Source of the DNA: Oscillospiraceae bacterium
GTDB taxonomy: Bacteria > Bacillota > Clostridia > Oscillospirales > Ruminococcaceae
DNA length: 64,000 nucleotides
Assembly (NCBI GenBank): GCA_963596815.1
Contig: CAVBNV010000001.1
Span: forward strand, 129,307-193,306
Direction: 5' to 3'
Positions 3,211 through 52,520 of the stretch are shown here, one piece after another (position 1 is the stretch's first letter; each line of letters starts with the position of its first letter). Below the pieces are notes generated by a model that made no database searches, had not been told where the DNA came from, and was given only the letters and a program-made list of their open reading frames with translations. Made by a program: the position numbers and the translations under genes.

Positions 3211-3225
3211 ACAAGACAACAATAA

Positions 3226-3315
3226 AATACAGGGGAGCTTGTGACTGCGGGCTGAGAGGAAGTAATCAAACTTCGACCCTTTACCTGATGCGGATAATGC
3301 CGCCGTAGGAAGTCA
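3226..3315 (+). ncRNA. TPP riboswitch aptamer
   Basis: GGGGAGC...GCTGAGA...GACCC...ACCTGAT.CGGATAATGCC.GCGTAGGAA-type conserved core upstream of thiamine genes. Confidence 0.95.
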
Positions 3316-3332
3316 TATCGTTACGATTTTTT

Positions 3333-47806: not shown

Positions 47807-47928
47807 GTCCAGACGTCAGGGCGGCATGAAAAGTGTGATAAAAACTTCCACTGTTTTCACATTGGCTTTTTACAGTTTTTTAATAGGTTTTTCATGAAAA
47901 GAAAGCGGAAAACTGTTATACTTTTGCC

Positions 47929-48042
47929 ATGGAAAGCGGAGCCGCAACCGCCTTCCACGTAACATGATTCCTCCTCACACCAAGGCAATATCCAAACAAA
48001 ATATTCCCCTCGGCATGCCGCAATGCTGGGGGGAATATTTTG
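47929..48042 (+). ncRNA. Putative sRNA, copy A of a two-member family
   Basis: ATGAAA-17-TATACT promoter, 5' hairpin, conserved core acatgattcctcctcacaccaaggcaata, terminator; paralog at 52.3 kb. Confidence 0.7.
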
Positions 48043-48119
48043 CGCTTACGAGAAAAAAGATCAAGCGACAACTTTTAGGAAAGGAAGATAAAAATTCCTG
48101 TAAAAAAGAGGGTTTAGGG

Positions 48120-48148
48120 TTGACCGCGTTTTTTTGCGGCGCTATAAT
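48120..48148 (+). promoter_or_regulatory. SigA promoter of the mgtE leader
   Basis: TTGACC-17 nt-TATAAT. Confidence 0.8.
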
Positions 48149-48188
48149 TAAACCGTCAACGATAAGCACAGGAGGTGAACGCAGAGCA

Positions 48189-48302
48189 ATGGACCCGGAT
48201 CATAGTCCAAGACGATACATCGGCGCGGTAGATCAGAAAACAAAAGGCTGCGTTCGTCTCCTTTATATTGCCTCACAGAAGAACCTTCAGAGGGGGCTGT
48301 GA
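48189..48302 (+). CDS. Putative leader peptide of mgtE (37 aa, MDPDHSPRR...)
   Basis: AGGAGGT at 48170 about 12 nt upstream of the ATG; lies in the long mgtE leader; N-terminus resembles MgtL. Confidence 0.5.
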   Translation: MDPDHSPRRYIGAVDQKTKGCVRLLYIASQKNLQRGL

Positions 48303-48486
48303 GGCTACGGTTTTGCGTGCTTTTCTGCAAGGAAAGAGTTTTGTCAGCAAAATTGATAAAGGCAGGCGCGCCTTGTTGTGCATAATTTTATGCACTGGGC
48401 GGCGCCTTTTGTTTTCTGGTATGCTTCGTCCTCTTAACGCAGCGTGCGAATGCACGTATGGGTGATAAACCAAGGAGGTACGGTAG

Positions 48487-50058
48487 ATGGAAGAAAAGAA
48501 AGAAGTTTTTGAGCAGCAGGCGCTGCCGGTTCAGGAGCTGCCAACTGATATCCCTGCAGAGGTTCGCCAGCAGCTGGTGCAGGACCTGAACGAGGAAGCA
48601 ACAGAAGACTTGAAACAGGACGTGCGGGAGGCAGAGGCGGAAGAGGCAAAGGACGAAGAGGTCAAAGCCAACCCGGAGATGCTTACAAAGAGCAGACTGC
48701 TGAAGCTGCTGATAAAAAAGCAATACGTAAAGCTGCGTGAAGTGACAGAGGAGGAACAGCCGGCTGACCTTGCAGAACTGTTGGAAGAGCTGGACGAAAA
48801 CAACCGTCTGCTCGTGTTTCGCTTGCTGAAAAAGGACGTTGCAACAGAGGCATTTGCCTATATGTCCGATGAGGCGCGAGAAGATCTGGTAAACGCCTTC
48901 TCGGATATCGAACTGGTAAGTGCTATTGAAGAAATGAGCCTTGACGATGCGGCAGACCTGTTGGAAGATATGCCTGCAGGCGTCGTCAAACGGGTGCTGG
49001 AAAAATCTTCAAAGCAGACACGCGAAAGTCTGAACAAACTTTTGAATTACCCTGAAAACTCTGCCGGCAGCTTAATGACGCCTGAATATGTGCGTTTGCG
49101 CAGAGACATGACGGTTCAGCAGGCATTTGAAGCGATCCGCAGACAGGGCGAAAATGCTGAGACGGTGTATACCTGCTATGTGGTGGATCGCAATCGCTTG
49201 CAGGGCGTTGTTTCGGCACGCAGTCTGCTGCTGGCACGACAGGATGAGCTGGTAGAGGACCTGATGGACGATAACATTATCGCAGTGAAGGTCACGGACG
49301 ACCAGGAGTATGTCGCACGAGAGATGCAGCGCTATGATTTTAGCGCAATGCCAGTGCTTGACAACGAGGGCATGTTTGTCGGTATTATCACAATCGACGA
49401 TGCGATTGATGTCTTGACGGATGAGAGTACCGAGGACATGCAGAAGATGGCGGCTATTTTGCCAGATGACGATGCCACGACTTATTTTGGTACGAGCGTC
49501 TGGACGCATGCAAAACAGCGTATCCCCTGGCTTTTGATCCTGATGCTTTCTGCAACGTTTACCGGTATGGTCACCACACATTACGAAAATGCATTTGTCA
49601 GCCTGCCACTGCTGGTATCGTTTATGCCGATGCTGATGGATACAGCCGGCAACTGCGGCAACCAGATCAGCACGCTGATGGTTCGCGGTCTTGCGCTGGG
49701 CGAGGTGGAGCCAAAAGACATTGTAAAGGTCCTCCTCAAAGAGATTCGCGTGGCTGCGATCGTGGGTGCAGTGCTGGGCATTGTCAACGGTCTGCGTATT
49801 TACCTGATGTACACGTTTATGTATCCGGGTAAGTACGACAATGTTGTCGGTTATGCTCTGGTAGTCAGTGTTTCGCTGTTCTTTAGTGTTGTACTGGCAA
49901 AAATGGTGGGTGGTATCCTGCCGCTTGCAGCCAAAAAGCTGGGTGCAGACCCGGCAATTATGGCAACACCGTTTATCACAACGATCGTCGATGCCTGCAG
50001 TCTGATCCTCTACTTCCAAATTGCAATGCTGGTATTCCGCAACGTGATGGTTGTATAA
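48487..50058 (+). CDS. mgtE: Magnesium transporter MgtE
   Basis: MgtE_N (PADLAELLEEL, DDAADLLED), SAGSLMT, CBS pair, RIPWLLILM, GNCGNQ, DPAIMATPFITTIVD. Confidence 0.96.
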   Translation: MEEKKEVFEQQALPVQELPTDIPAEVRQQLVQDLNEEATEDLKQDVREAEAEEAKDEEVKANPEMLTKSRLLKLLIKKQYVKLREVTEEEQPADLAELLEELDENNRLLVFRLLKKDVATEAFAYMSDEAREDLVNAFSDIELVSAIEEMSLDDAADLLEDMPAGVVKRVLEKSSKQTRESLNKLLNYPENSAGSLMTPEYVRLRRDMTVQQAFEAIRRQGENAETVYTCYVVDRNRLQGVVSARSLLLARQDELVEDLMDDNIIAVKVTDDQEYVAREMQRYDFSAMPVLDNEGMFVGIITIDDAIDVLTDESTEDMQKMAAILPDDDATTYFGTSVWTHAKQRIPWLLILMLSATFTGMVTTHYENAFVSLPLLVSFMPMLMDTAGNCGNQISTLMVRGLALGEVEPKDIVKVLLKEIRVAAIVGAVLGIVNGLRIYLMYTFMYPGKYDNVVGYALVVSVSLFFSVVLAKMVGGILPLAAKKLGADPAIMATPFITTIVDACSLILYFQIAMLVFRNVMVV

Positions 50059-50070
50059 TAGTCTTAACAA

Positions 50071-50105
50071 AAGCGCCTCTGCCTCTCGTAGGTGGGGGCG
50101 CTTTG
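50071..50105 (+). terminator. Terminator after mgtE
   Basis: aagcgcctctgcct/aggtgggggcgctt hairpin. Confidence 0.7.
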
Positions 50106-50111
50106 CGCTTG

Positions 50112-50450
50112 TGTTGAAAAGTGGAAATTGAAAAGTTTTCCACGTGAGGAGATACATGAGAAAAGGATGTGGAAAACTTGACACTCGAAAATTCCCCACG
50201 GGAGAAAGTTTGTCGATGATGTCGCAGACTGCTGCAAATAATAAAGAAAAAATGAGAAATGATTTATGATGTAAAGAAAAAACAATGATTTGACCGTGAA
50301 TGACAAGGCAAAATAAAAACGAAAATACGGCTTGTATAAAGAAATAAGGATTTTGAAGTTGAAAACCCGGTGGAAAAAGTTGAAAGCATTGTGGGAAAAG
50401 TCCTTGTTGTTCACAAAACTGGTTGAAAACCCGGTGGAAAAAGTTAAAAA
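50112..50450. repeat. Cluster of variant DnaA-box-like 9-mers with a 24-bp direct repeat
   Basis: tgttgaaaa, agtggaaat, ttttccacg, tgtggaaaa and others; gttgaaaacccggtggaaaaagtt at 50358-50381 and 50422-50445. Confidence 0.7.
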
Positions 50451-50589
50451 ATCCATCCGATGAGCGAAAACAGACAGCTTTGAGTGAGATTGAAAAATGA
50501 GTGCCATCCTTGAACGACCTGTCCAATCATGATACAATAGGAGCTATCAAGACAGCCCTAGAGGGGCGTTATTCACGGAGGTTGCTGCT

Positions 50590-51231
50590 ATGAATTGGCT
50601 TACCCGCCTTGAGAAAAAATTTGGACGATTTGCCATCCCGAACCTAACGAATATTTTAATTGCCGGGCAGATCCTTGTATTCGCTGTTGAACTTTTTGTA
50701 AACAGTACGGCGGCATATTATCTTACGCTGAATCGCAGCCTTTTGATGCAGGGACAAATTTGGAGGCTGGTTTCGTTTGTGCTTGTTCCGTTTTCTGGGG
50801 GCGGAATATTGAGCGTTATTCTGGGCATATATTTTACGTGGTTTGTGGGCACCGCACTTGAAAAAGAATGGGGCGACTTCCGTTATACGGTGTACTTTCT
50901 GTCGGGGATGCTGGGGGCAATTTTGTCCTGTCTGCTAACGGGGATCACGGCGAGTACATACTGCCTGTCACTTTCGCTTCTGCTGGCGTTTGCCATGCTG
51001 TACCCTGAGGTACAGCTGCTGCTGTTTTTTGTGATTCCGGTAAAAGTGAAATACTTCGGCTGGTTTTCTGCCGCATTATGGCTGTTCAGCTTTATTGTAT
51101 CGAGCCCGATGGGAAAATTGAGCTATATTCTGAGTATGCTGAATGTATGGCTGTTCTTTGCACCTAAGGCATGGCGCAGCGTGCGTGCTTGGGTTCGGCG
51201 TGAGCAGTGGAAACGGAAAAACAAGCGCTGA
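50590..51231 (+). CDS. Rhomboid/Derlin-like membrane protein
   Basis: LEKKFGRFAIPNL, GQIWRLVSF, LEKEWG, LLLFFVIPVKVKY; multiple TM segments; no clear GxSG. Confidence 0.75.
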   Translation: MNWLTRLEKKFGRFAIPNLTNILIAGQILVFAVELFVNSTAAYYLTLNRSLLMQGQIWRLVSFVLVPFSGGGILSVILGIYFTWFVGTALEKEWGDFRYTVYFLSGMLGAILSCLLTGITASTYCLSLSLLLAFAMLYPEVQLLLFFVIPVKVKYFGWFSAALWLFSFIVSSPMGKLSYILSMLNVWLFFAPKAWRSVRAWVRREQWKRKNKR

Positions 51232-51249
51232 CAGGTTTGTGCAAAGGAA

Positions 51250-52224
51250 GTGGTGCCCATGATGCTGGAAAGAATGGCAGGTAATGCGGAGCTGAAGGCC
51301 AGCATAAAGCTGATGCTTGACTCGCGCCGCCTGACACACAGCATACTTTTGGTGGGTGAAGAAGGACTTGGAGCAGGCTTTGCTGCACGATGCATTGCGG
51401 CAGATTACCTTTATCCGGCAGGAGGTGCGCCGGCAGAGTCGCTGCTGCGCGGAGAATGCTGCCATGCGGTGGCGAAAGCAGGCAAGCGCGACAGCGGTCA
51501 TGTGGAAACAGGCATTGTGCGTGAGGCGATTGCGGTGGAAGGAATGGGCAGCGGCGGCAGGTACCTTGTGGGACAGGTCACCGCAATGCGCGCGGAGATT
51601 TTTAATACAAGCCTTTCGGCACGTGGACGTGCGGTGCTGCTTTACCACGTGGAGAGAATGAATGAGGAGTCGGCAAATGCGCTGCTTAAGGTGATGGAAG
51701 AGCCGCCGGAAGACGTTTTGTTTTTGTTGACGGCAGACTCGCTGGCAGGTGTTCTGCCTACGATTCGCAGCCGATGTGTCAGTTTTGCAATGGCGCCGGT
51801 TTCGGCTGAGGAATGTGCAGAGTATTGCACAAAACAGGGTGTAGAGAAAAAAACAGCTTCCCTTTACGGAGAGCTGTTTGATGGTCATATCGGTACGGTT
51901 CTTGCCGCTGCACAGGACGAAACGCGAACCGTGCAGGTGCAGCAGGCCTTAAAGCTTGCGACAGCCGCACAGGAAAAGGACAGCTATCGTGCAGCAGTCC
52001 TGCTTGCCGGCTGCGAAAAAGAAAAAGCAGCCGCAGCAGCTCTGCTGACAGATCTGCGTGCGGTAGCGGCGGCCGGCATGAAGCAGAGCAAATATGCCCC
52101 TGTGCAGGGCGATACGGCCCGTAAATTGATCAAAATAACAGATTCTGCCTTGCAGCGTCTTGCAGCGCAGGTGAACCCCAGGATTGTACTGACGATGTAT
52201 GCGGCAATGTTTCGCACGTTATGA
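51250..52224 (+). CDS. holB: DNA polymerase III delta' subunit
   Basis: RLTHSILLVG, MNEESANALLKVMEEPP, LPTIRSRC (SRC motif). Confidence 0.85.
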   Translation: MVPMMLERMAGNAELKASIKLMLDSRRLTHSILLVGEEGLGAGFAARCIAADYLYPAGGAPAESLLRGECCHAVAKAGKRDSGHVETGIVREAIAVEGMGSGGRYLVGQVTAMRAEIFNTSLSARGRAVLLYHVERMNEESANALLKVMEEPPEDVLFLLTADSLAGVLPTIRSRCVSFAMAPVSAEECAEYCTKQGVEKKTASLYGELFDGHIGTVLAAAQDETRTVQVQQALKLATAAQEKDSYRAAVLLAGCEKEKAAAAALLTDLRAVAAAGMKQSKYAPVQGDTARKLIKITDSALQRLAAQVNPRIVLTMYAAMFRTL

Positions 52225-52232
52225 TATGAGAT

Positions 52233-52353
52233 AAAAAACAGAAACTCCCTCCGGCGCTTGCGGTACACCGGAGGGAGTTTCTGTTTGGGGTATTGCTTTG
52301 GTGTGAGGAGGAATCATGTGCAGGAAGATGGTTGCGGCCCCATCTTTCCTACA
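52233..52353 (-). ncRNA. Putative sRNA, copy B
   Basis: Minus strand: ATGACT-17-TATACT (-10 at 52360-52365), 5' hairpin, core acatgattcctcctcacaccaaagcaata, terminator shared with holB. Confidence 0.7.
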
Positions 52354-52520
52354 GCATATAGTATACACGACTTTCGGGAGAAAGTCATTATGTTTTTGTG
52401 AAAAACTGTGAAAAAAAAGAGAAAATAATGATTGTAAAGAAAAGCCTTTTTTAAAATAAATTAAACAAATGCTAAAAATTGATGAAATAGGCAAAATAAA
52501 ATAAAGCCGACGAAAAAGTG

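Follow-up and report, generated by a model that had tools for sequence, protein, structure and literature searches.

Two predicted small RNA loci in the window

The window, meaning the whole stretch of 64,000 nucleotides that was analysed, holds two paralogous loci, copies A and B, which were found where a first-pass annotation had placed them. Each combines a direct-repeat operator and a promoter with a predicted small RNA (sRNA) of a family whose members are about 115–125 nt long: they open with a 5' hairpin that carries CCGCA in its loop, continue with an unpaired linker complementary to a Shine-Dalgarno (SD) sequence and a start codon, and end in a terminator. The features of the two copies are:

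47869..47896, + strand: copy A operator, three hexamer direct repeats with an 11-bp period (TTTACA, TTAATA, TTCATG), the third overlapping the -35 position, the same layout as before htrA
47917..47922, + strand: copy A -10 hexamer TATACT with TG upstream; probable start site near 47929
47929..48045, + strand: copy A predicted sRNA, about 117 nt with predicted ends; family model score 108 bits
47931..47956, + strand: copy A 5' hairpin with the invariant CCGCA loop, from fold and covariation
47962..47990, + strand: copy A unpaired linker, with CAU (anti-AUG), UUCCUCCUCA (anti-SD) and then a conserved AUAYC before the terminator
47997..48042, + strand: copy A 3' hairpin, terminator-like, with CCGCAA in the loop and a T-run within the stem
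52386..52413, - strand: copy B operator, TTCACA repeats (the first two 10 bp apart) and a degenerate third repeat
52360..52365, - strand: copy B -10 hexamer TATACT; probable start site near 52353
52230..52353, - strand: copy B predicted sRNA, about 124 nt with predicted ends; family model score 137 bits
52319..52353, - strand: copy B 5' hairpin with CCGCA loop, from fold and covariation
52291..52319, - strand: copy B unpaired anti-AUG/anti-SD linker, from linker comparison
52230..52286, - strand: copy B intrinsic terminator (hairpin 52286-52236), 20-bp stem, CCGCAA loop and T-tail

The terminator hairpins that had been ascribed to both copies are present, but a simple terminator scan calls copy B only, because the T-run of copy A sits inside its stem. 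A third, diverged family copy lies on contig C25 of the host genome (G000), and no third linker match was found in these 2.2 Mb with up to six substitutions allowed.

Structure and conservation of the RNA

The 29-nt linkers of copies A and B differ by a single mismatch, the chance expectation of such linker pairs in 64 kb being about 2.5e-6. Both copies fold more stably than shuffled sequences (z of -5.0 and -8.8, with 0 of 200 shuffles equally stable), and all four of their CCGCAA motifs lie in loops, at mean unpaired probabilities of 0.83-1.0. Across the family alignment, 22 of 25 stem pairs have changed on both sides, and pairing is kept in 87.6% of alignment cells compared with 46-58% when partners are slid, a value matched by none of 500 shuffles. 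Column identity is lowest in the stems, at 0.71, whereas the linker reaches 0.95 and both loop motifs 1.0. Alignment and shuffle tests thus uphold the shared architecture, compensated stems and near-invariant linker proposed in the first-pass annotation. Its reading of the linker as an element directed against a ribosome-binding site and start codon likewise finds support in the sequence, 158 of the 188 anchored segments having CAU just 5' of the linker core, even where the next base varies, and UCCUCCU with the adjoining CAU being conserved across genera.

Read on the other strand, the linker is a strong SD followed by ATG and opens a 31-codon frame in both window copies, as it would if it were the plain ribosome-binding site of a small protein gene, or of one against which a type I antitoxin is directed. 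Such a reading is highly improbable, given that the frame varies from 12 to 101 codons and shifts among 29 homologues, that it would cross the conserved promoter of the other strand, and that no shared small gene flanks the loci when frames of at least 80 codons are compared. An antitoxin role is further opposed by the finding of no other near-complementary site in the host genome and of no conserved small toxin frame, whether overlapping or near-perfectly complementary. The antisense protein was rejected on frame length and frame shifts, 29 of 32 copies having been compared.

The CCGCA loops show a more uneven pattern. The earlier description of four CCGCAA loops holds for the window copies, and the 5'-loop CCGCA is the sole motif invariant in 27 of 27 diverse aligned members, but distant members frequently lack the copy in the terminator loop and many carry one CCGCA in total. 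Diverged genus copies without it in the terminator loop mostly have CCGCA at the linker end instead (19 of 188 segments), and two promoterless look-alikes behind LPXTG surface-protein genes have kept both loops while the anti-SD sequence is gone. These observations, together with the finding of no target conserved across genera, are what would be expected of a decoy or scaffold that titrates an RNA-binding protein through its CCGCA loops, the CU-rich linker being secondary. CsrB, RsmY and RsmZ are two-component-driven RNAs of this protein-titrating kind, CsrB titrating CsrA, and they resemble the present family in repeating a short motif in hairpin loops; their motif, however, is GGA, whereas here it is CCGCA, at one to three per RNA. 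A pure decoy would not need the UCCUCCU and CAU that are kept across genera, nor does a single CCGCA in many distant members suit it, and CsrA was not found in the host genome. Around start codons, CCGCAA or its complement showed no clear positional peak, as judged with no formal statistic. A decoy is accordingly considered unlikely, and pairing of the linker with ribosome-binding sites is, from its sequence, the probable main action of the RNAs. As for CCGCA being a generic terminator loop, 18 of 489 intergenic hairpins contain it and 8 contain its complement, a mild bias that leaves the invariance unexplained.

Distribution and novelty of the family

The family model has matches in 39 of 40 genomes of the genus, in 17-28 of 150 of the family and in 1 of 150 of the class; here and in the genome comparisons below, related genomes are not independent samples. 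The RNA is found mainly in Ruminococcaceae. Among gut anaerobes, Faecalibacterium and relatives are abundant. Genomes carry one to five copies with stable but varied neighbours, and since neighbours and orientation differ from locus to locus the unit is not the leader of one gene. In the window, copy A lies upstream of mgtE and the copy B terminator adjoins a convergent holB-like gene, its hairpin 12 nt past the stop, a placement that would also suit a cis-acting mgtE leader, a bidirectional terminator or a non-transcribed DNA repeat. All three are very unlikely: a consensus promoter separate from that of copy A precedes mgtE at 48120-48148, the low copy number and stable, varied neighbours speak against a repeat, the promoter stands at a fixed distance and is conserved on one strand, and a terminator role leaves the 5' hairpin and the linker unexplained. 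Model search, covariation and promoters instead support the multi-copy, independently promoted family of structured RNAs that had been postulated, and on sequence grounds the loci are very probably real sRNA genes.

No Rfam 15 covariance model scored at or above its gathering threshold for either copy (best about 20 bits, E 0.5 or worse), and a scan of 16 loci that hold diverged members picked up nothing but tRNA and T-box matches in the flanks, so that the earlier failure to assign a known family holds. The Rfam scan of the whole window yielded one TPP riboswitch only, away from both copies. In the accessible parts of the literature, neither a description of the family nor a regulatory sRNA for Faecalibacterium and relatives was found. 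The table of Fremin and Bhatt 2021 (PMC8040213), which carries no sequences, shows no Faecalibacterium row that fits when two neighbour-domain terms are used; the family may overlap one of its candidates, the comparison being by table only. This is apparently a small RNA family of common gut bacteria that has been undescribed so far. A phage origin was also considered and rejected, five viral pattern matches being confirmed by none of the models.

A direct-repeat operator shared with htrA

Upstream of the RNAs, the first-pass annotation had proposed an ATGAnn-17-TATACT promoter, of which the spacing is borne out in both copies, but homologues do not keep ATGAnn. What they share instead is a set of TTYACA/TTCAYA direct repeats at 11-bp spacing, the second of which stands at a constant distance from the -10 hexamer in 129 of 140 distinct anchored upstream regions; the promoter matrix of these 140 regions reads TTYACA-N5-TTCAYA, 31 nt from the -10. 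A pattern built from the sRNA promoters has matches in 41 of 41 genus genomes, with 1 match for a reversed control, and the recurrent match outside the sRNAs is htrA, the gene of the protein-repair protease HtrA, before which the same layout occurs in 33 of the 41 genomes (5 assigned as htrA by translation and 28 by promoter likeness). When htrA promoters were picked by protein homology, high scores were obtained in 14 of 15 sRNA-bearing genomes versus 4 of 14 others. A first matrix scan of the host genome gave few matches and missed htrA. The remaining pattern matches include ftsH (two genomes), Hsp20 (two), a PrsA/SurA-like lipoprotein (one), tatB (two, translated) and, in one genome, the gene of a candidate regulator itself, as well as unrelated genes such as smpB, NAD synthetase, an AraC regulator and a YerC/TrpR-like gene, among others. 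The operator common to the sRNAs and htrA, which is absent from the earlier annotation, is the best functional clue to the family.

Direct repeats of this kind might also suggest a phosphate regulator of the PhoB/PhoP type or another member of the OmpR family in place of an htrA regulator. Box 1 is TTTACA in 74 of 129 sRNA promoters, equally near the pstS and htrA boxes, and taken by itself it is nearer pstS in 92 of the 129; TTTACA repeats are similarly arranged in the Na/Pi-phoBR promoter of G000, and the host genome encodes ten Trans_reg_C matches above cut-off. Against phosphate control, none of 40 located pstS genes is among the operator-pattern matches by coordinate comparison. Box 2, which reads TTCAYA in the sRNA promoters, TTCAC before htrA and TTTGC or TTTTC before pstS, favours htrA in 128 of 129 promoters, and boxes 1 and 2 together are nearer htrA in 127 of 129, comparisons that are partly circular, since a similar pattern had served to extract the htrA matrix. 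Regulation by a phosphate or other OmpR-family regulator is thus rather improbable, and the operator sequences make it fairly likely that a regulator of the htrA type drives the sRNAs.

The best candidate for this regulator, weakly supported, is the OmpR-type gene G000:C20:20892-21578. Its orthologues have an upstream repeat with at most one mismatch in 9 of 29 cases, none of them in G000, against 3.5% of 970 background regions, whereas a second candidate, near htrA in two of five genomes, has one in 0 of 6. The first candidate shows general OmpR-family likeness and passes no curated NCBIfam cut-off among its 25 best families.

Predicted targets

Duplex and cofold scans of the gene starts in the host genome (1955 called genes) gave no outlier target, and genes for lipoproteins, membrane proteins or proteins with a signal peptide did not stand out by stronger predicted pairing (1938 genes scored; all p > 0.07). 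A perfect partner of the linker needs a 4-nt spacer between SD and AUG, found at 17 of 664 GGAGG-bearing starts. A search of 41 genomes for the seed pattern returned one recurrent gene among the 30 loci read, 23 further matches lying outside those listed; it occupies the ftsL position (mraZ-rsmH-x-PBP) and has no Pfam match. Its start region falls within the top 1% of the G000 pairing-energy distribution in 25 of 30 genus loci, although the gene ranks 123 of 1955 in G000 and pairs unremarkably in ten other genera, so that as a target it is a tentative, post hoc lead. Neither the seed pattern nor the energy comparison revealed a target conserved across genera.

Proposed mechanism and related systems

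The explanation offered for these data as a whole, with moderate confidence, is that of sibling sRNAs which an OmpR-type regulator of secretion or envelope stress would induce to block translation initiation. Copies A and B and the C25 copy would be stand-alone genes. Under secretion or envelope protein-folding stress, the response regulator would bind the repeats and activate promoters with weak -35 elements, along with htrA and, depending on the genome, ftsH, Hsp20, the PrsA-like foldase and tatB. Pairing of UUCCUCCUCA and CAU with SD sequences and start codons would then keep the 30S subunit from loading, with no need of Hfq; neither Hfq nor CsrA was found in the 99%-complete host genome. 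In the weakest step, the CCGCA loops may hold a helper protein or stabilise the RNA. It is also conceivable, if doubtful, that there is no single main target and that the RNAs act as a broad anti-SD throttle in secretion stress, carried by a putative protein that reads the CCGCA loops. In a lineage that yielded neither Hfq nor CsrA, such a carrier would represent a new RNA chaperone or regulator, perhaps one that also binds the double-loop element downstream of some LPXTG surface-protein genes. The invariant loop is a ready bait for RNA-binding proteins in bacteria without Hfq.

The sibling sRNAs envisaged here resemble two described systems. The csRNAs (CcnA-E) of the Streptococcus CiaRH system are sibling copies in which two stem-loops flank a single-stranded stretch complementary to both SD and AUG, and their promoters carry an N5-spaced direct repeat for the OmpR-type regulator CiaR (PMC3091779), which activates htrA (PMC12826053). 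The present family shares the sibling copies, the anatomy and the OmpR-type direct repeats with an htrA tie. However, the CiaR box is TTTAAG-N5-TTTAAG, 10 nt upstream of the -10 (PMC3091779), unlike the operator described above, and the csRNA nonamer [A/C]UCCUAAA[A/C], which adjoins the first stem-loop (PMC3091779), was not seen by eye in the family alignments. CCGCA loops are not described for csRNAs in the text available, the host class is another, and no csRNA was matched through Rfam. The CiaR recognition helix, as tabulated in PMC3091779, is absent from nine full-length OmpR-type regulators of the host genome, a count that leaves out two weaker Trans_reg_C matches. LhrC1-5 of Listeria monocytogenes are multi-copy, two-hairpin sRNAs under the envelope-stress two-component system LisRK, with a motif repeated in both loops and Hfq-independent blocking of the SD (PMC4132741), and LisRK is linked to htrA (PMC12826053). 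Copy number, the two-hairpin form and a motif in both loops recur here. In LhrC, though, loops and linker carry one and the same anti-SD seed, UCCC (PMC4132741), whereas the CCGCA of the present loops differs from the linker and is unable to pair with an SD. On the best reading, the family would act like csRNAs and LhrC and be a member of neither.

If this is confirmed, it would add a third Bacillota lineage to Streptococcus and Listeria as one whose htrA-controlling system also drives sibling anti-SD RNAs; those of the three lineages are unrelated in sequence, which would point to convergence. The operator is readable and nearly all of the genus genomes searched carry the family, which provides a stress regulon open to test (htrA, ftsH, Hsp20, PrsA-like, tat) along with a candidate two-component system. 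A third system, CssRS of Bacillus subtilis, controls htrA and htrB (PMC8767453), and no sRNA members are described for its regulon in the portions of the sources at hand. Its canonical CssR box, TTTTCACA (PMC6749698), fits the repeats found here and shared with the htrA promoter.

The two sRNA genes and their source genome

Copies A and B, the paired sRNA loci of the window, are very probably genuine sRNA genes, and they belong to a conserved, apparently undescribed family of Faecalibacterium and related genera. In the source genome (2.2 Mb, 99%-complete; window on contig C1), both elements were re-located where the first-pass annotation had placed them, and each folds into the shared architecture that it had described, in which an open linker separates a 5' hairpin from a long 3' hairpin. 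Compared with 200 shuffles, the fold z-scores are -5.0 and -8.8. Neither copy matched an Rfam family, in keeping with the annotation, which could not assign one. The 29-nt linkers differ by one base, a likeness far beyond chance, and a whole-genome scan allowing up to six substitutions contained no third linker-like site; a third, diverged copy was located by covariance model.

Window 47929..48045 (+): copy A, between pyruvate:ferredoxin oxidoreductase and mgtE
Window 52230..52353 (-): copy B, flanked by holB-like and gamma-carbonic-anhydrase-like genes
G000 (source genome):C25:15936-16058 (-): third, diverged copy, locus L051

The promoter of L051 carries CAT-type repeats, its RNA is without CAU and has CCGCAA at the linker end, and it is flanked by ABC-permease-like and PAP2-phosphatase-like genes (names read from translations). 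The window also holds an ordinary TPP riboswitch at 3221-3328 (+) (Rfam, 64.1 bits).

Distribution and conservation of the family

Searching with an 18-nt pattern of the linker gave matches in 34/36 genomes of the genus and in 0/24 from the order's other families, its backwards control giving zero matches. Among 40 genus genomes at least 90% complete, 39 gave one to five matches each with a first covariance model, which bears out the proposal of a multi-copy family, and this model matched 17/150 family genomes and none of 150 genomes drawn across the order. With an E-value limit of 0.01, a second model matched 28/150 family genomes; two of the weak matches among these are probably false, because the sRNA architecture is absent there. 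With this model, one of 150 class genomes, from another family of the same order, also held a convincing copy. Among the matches listed, named public records are mostly labelled Faecalibacterium, Gemmiger, Subdoligranulum, Ruthenibacterium, Allofournierella, Anaerofilum or Oscillospiraceae, the best-scoring being mostly Faecalibacterium, and a few carry Bacteroidales labels. Four loci labelled Barnesiella or Bacteroides (L061, L062, L064, L090) score 81-123 bits with the second model; such matches are likely mislabelled records or contaminating contigs.

In an alignment of 32 copies (the two window copies and 30 loci), 22 of the 25 predicted pairs change on both sides, and 87.6% of pairing cells can pair, vs 46-58% with slid partners. 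Since the sequences are related and the structure was derived from the same alignment, the covariation anticipated by the first-pass annotation is strong, but not formal. Column identity rises from 0.71 in the stems to 0.95 in the linker, and both loop motifs reach 1.0; across 27 diverse members, nothing is invariant except the 5'-loop CCGCA and two C's within the anti-SD core. Among 188 anchored segments, overlapping loci included, UCCUCCUCA is present in 163, CAU directly precedes the core in 158 and a second CCGCA lies downstream in 143. Flanking genes and orientation differ among loci, as expected for stand-alone genes. Three tandem sRNA genes, each with its own promoter, lie within 700 bp at G098:C39:12488-13167 (L046, L050, L052), and six of 11 distant matches (L439, L440, L442, L445, L446, L447) are divergent from an HTH-regulator-like gene, XRE/LexA-like by reading.

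Promoter, operator and candidate regulator

Across 140 distinct upstream regions, the ATGAnn element of the originally proposed promoter is not conserved; what stays fixed is the -10 together with a series of hexamers at an 11-bp period. These read TTTACA and TTCAYA, followed by a weaker third that covers the -35 position and a fourth that is degenerate. OmpR-family activators typically use tandem direct repeats with this spacing. An operator pattern of the first two hexamers (boxes 1 and 2) and the -10, one mismatch allowed, matched in 41/41 genus genomes, and its control matched once. One non-sRNA promoter recurs among these matches, in 33 of the 41 genomes; an HtrA-type protease (trypsin and PDZ) lies downstream in all five translated cases, the other 28 being assigned to htrA by promoter likeness.

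C1:126544-126597: recurrent htrA-type promoter in G000, just outside the window

In an independent check on htrA loci gathered by protein homology, one of them too short, the sRNA operator layout was high-scoring in 14/15 sRNA-bearing genomes, vs 4/14 others.

The main alternative is control by the phosphate regulon, whose pstS promoters likewise contain TTTAC repeats; box 1 alone is non-discriminating (htrA the better fit in 37/129 sRNA promoters). However, at pstS the second box reads TTTGC or TTTTC and is placed 32 nt away from the -10, the operator pattern matched at 0/40 pstS promoters, and with boxes 1 and 2 together htrA is the better fit in 127/129 sRNA promoters, albeit with a partly circular htrA matrix. 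Ten Trans_reg_C matches exceed the cut-off in G000. For the candidate regulator at C20:20892-21578, 9/29 orthologues carry a near-perfect upstream repeat, vs 3.5% of 970 background regions, the repeat being absent upstream of the G000 gene itself. A close orthologue occurs in 17/17 sRNA-bearing family genomes, a co-occurrence that is not independent, as these genomes are nearest relatives. A second candidate, C7:19843, lies near htrA in 2/5 genomes and has no upstream repeat in 6/6. Judging from sequence, we lean cautiously towards a complete chain as the likeliest reading, in which the sRNA family would form the RNA arm of a two-component stress response that controls htrA and would act at ribosome-binding sites.

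Thirty operator matches were read, 20 from the genus-wide pattern search and 10 more; among the genes behind them are ftsH (2), Hsp20 (2), a PrsA/SurA-like lipoprotein (1), tatB (2), one gene for a response regulator and two more sRNA-like units rich in CU, and also unrelated genes such as smpB, NAD synthetase and an AraC regulator. Further sRNA-like units with a hairpin, long CU-rich linker and terminator (L292:314-452 (-), L293, L314:1566-1707 (+)) lie in G208, G350 and G104 behind operators that match perfectly, with weak model scores of 14-21 bits. At G000:C14:21966-22350 (+) (L291), an operator-like match and -10 precede a non-coding stretch that lacks any long frame and contains several hairpins, possibly another RNA. 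At G000:C12:10486-10540 (+), the promoter of a tatB-tatA-tatC-like operon shows three TTCA-type repeats spaced as in the sRNA promoters, but a poor -10.

Mode of action and targets

The linker is single-stranded in the predicted fold, and its sequence complements an SD plus start codon. Among the 27 diverse members CAU persists even when the base 3' of it changes, in line with a role against start codons. Neither Hfq nor CsrA was found in the 99%-complete G000, where target searches singled out no mRNA and predicted pairing did not favour envelope genes. A candidate found post hoc, the gene at the ftsL position, pairs well in 25/30 genus loci, only moderately in G000, and not well in 10 other genera; this pairing may just reflect a conserved strong SD. 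An antisense protein frame opposite the linker was rejected, its reading frame not being conserved among 29 homologues.

The CCGCA loops cannot pair with the SD. Their invariance, the relocation of CCGCA in diverged copies to where the linker ends, and two promoterless double-loop elements behind LPXTG genes suggest that they may bind a protein.

G345, L202:270-380 (+): promoterless double hairpin, two CCGCAA loops
G345, L203:305-407 (-): promoterless double hairpin, two CCGCAA loops

Both elements stand directly 3' of LPXTG surface-protein stop codons and have lost the anti-SD core.

Relation to known systems

In streptococci, the csRNAs form a set of sibling RNAs, each with two hairpins and with segments complementary to SD and AUG, driven by a CiaR direct repeat (PMC3091779); CiaR also activates htrA (PMC12826053), comC is reported as a csRNA target (PMC4507080) and csRNAs affect zinc resistance (PMC11478796). 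Listeria LhrC1-5 are LisRK-dependent and act without Hfq, through UCCC seeds that lie in the linker as well as in both loops (PMC4132741). The Bacillus CssR binding site is TTTTCACA (PMC6749698), CssR controlling htrA and htrB (PMC8767453). The present family appears similar to csRNAs and LhrC in anatomy and regulatory setting, but its operator differs, the csRNA nonamer is absent, its loops have no UCCC and Rfam gave no match, so membership in either group failed. No published description was found in a literature search covering few subscription papers, and the motif may have been predicted before, for instance in the largest microbiome RNA catalogue.

The mgtE leader

Beside copy A, the mgtE leader (window 48120-48486 (+)) has a consensus promoter, downstream of which come a strong SD and a reading frame for a leader peptide. 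The peptide spans 28-38 codons and begins with the same five residues in 9/9 loci. No Rfam match was obtained in the whole-window search. The leader folds with a z-score of -3.85, and conserved complementary segments could form an attenuator with a terminal T-run. It is possibly a magnesium-sensing translational attenuator, presumably resembling the MgtL leader peptide of enterobacterial mgtA.
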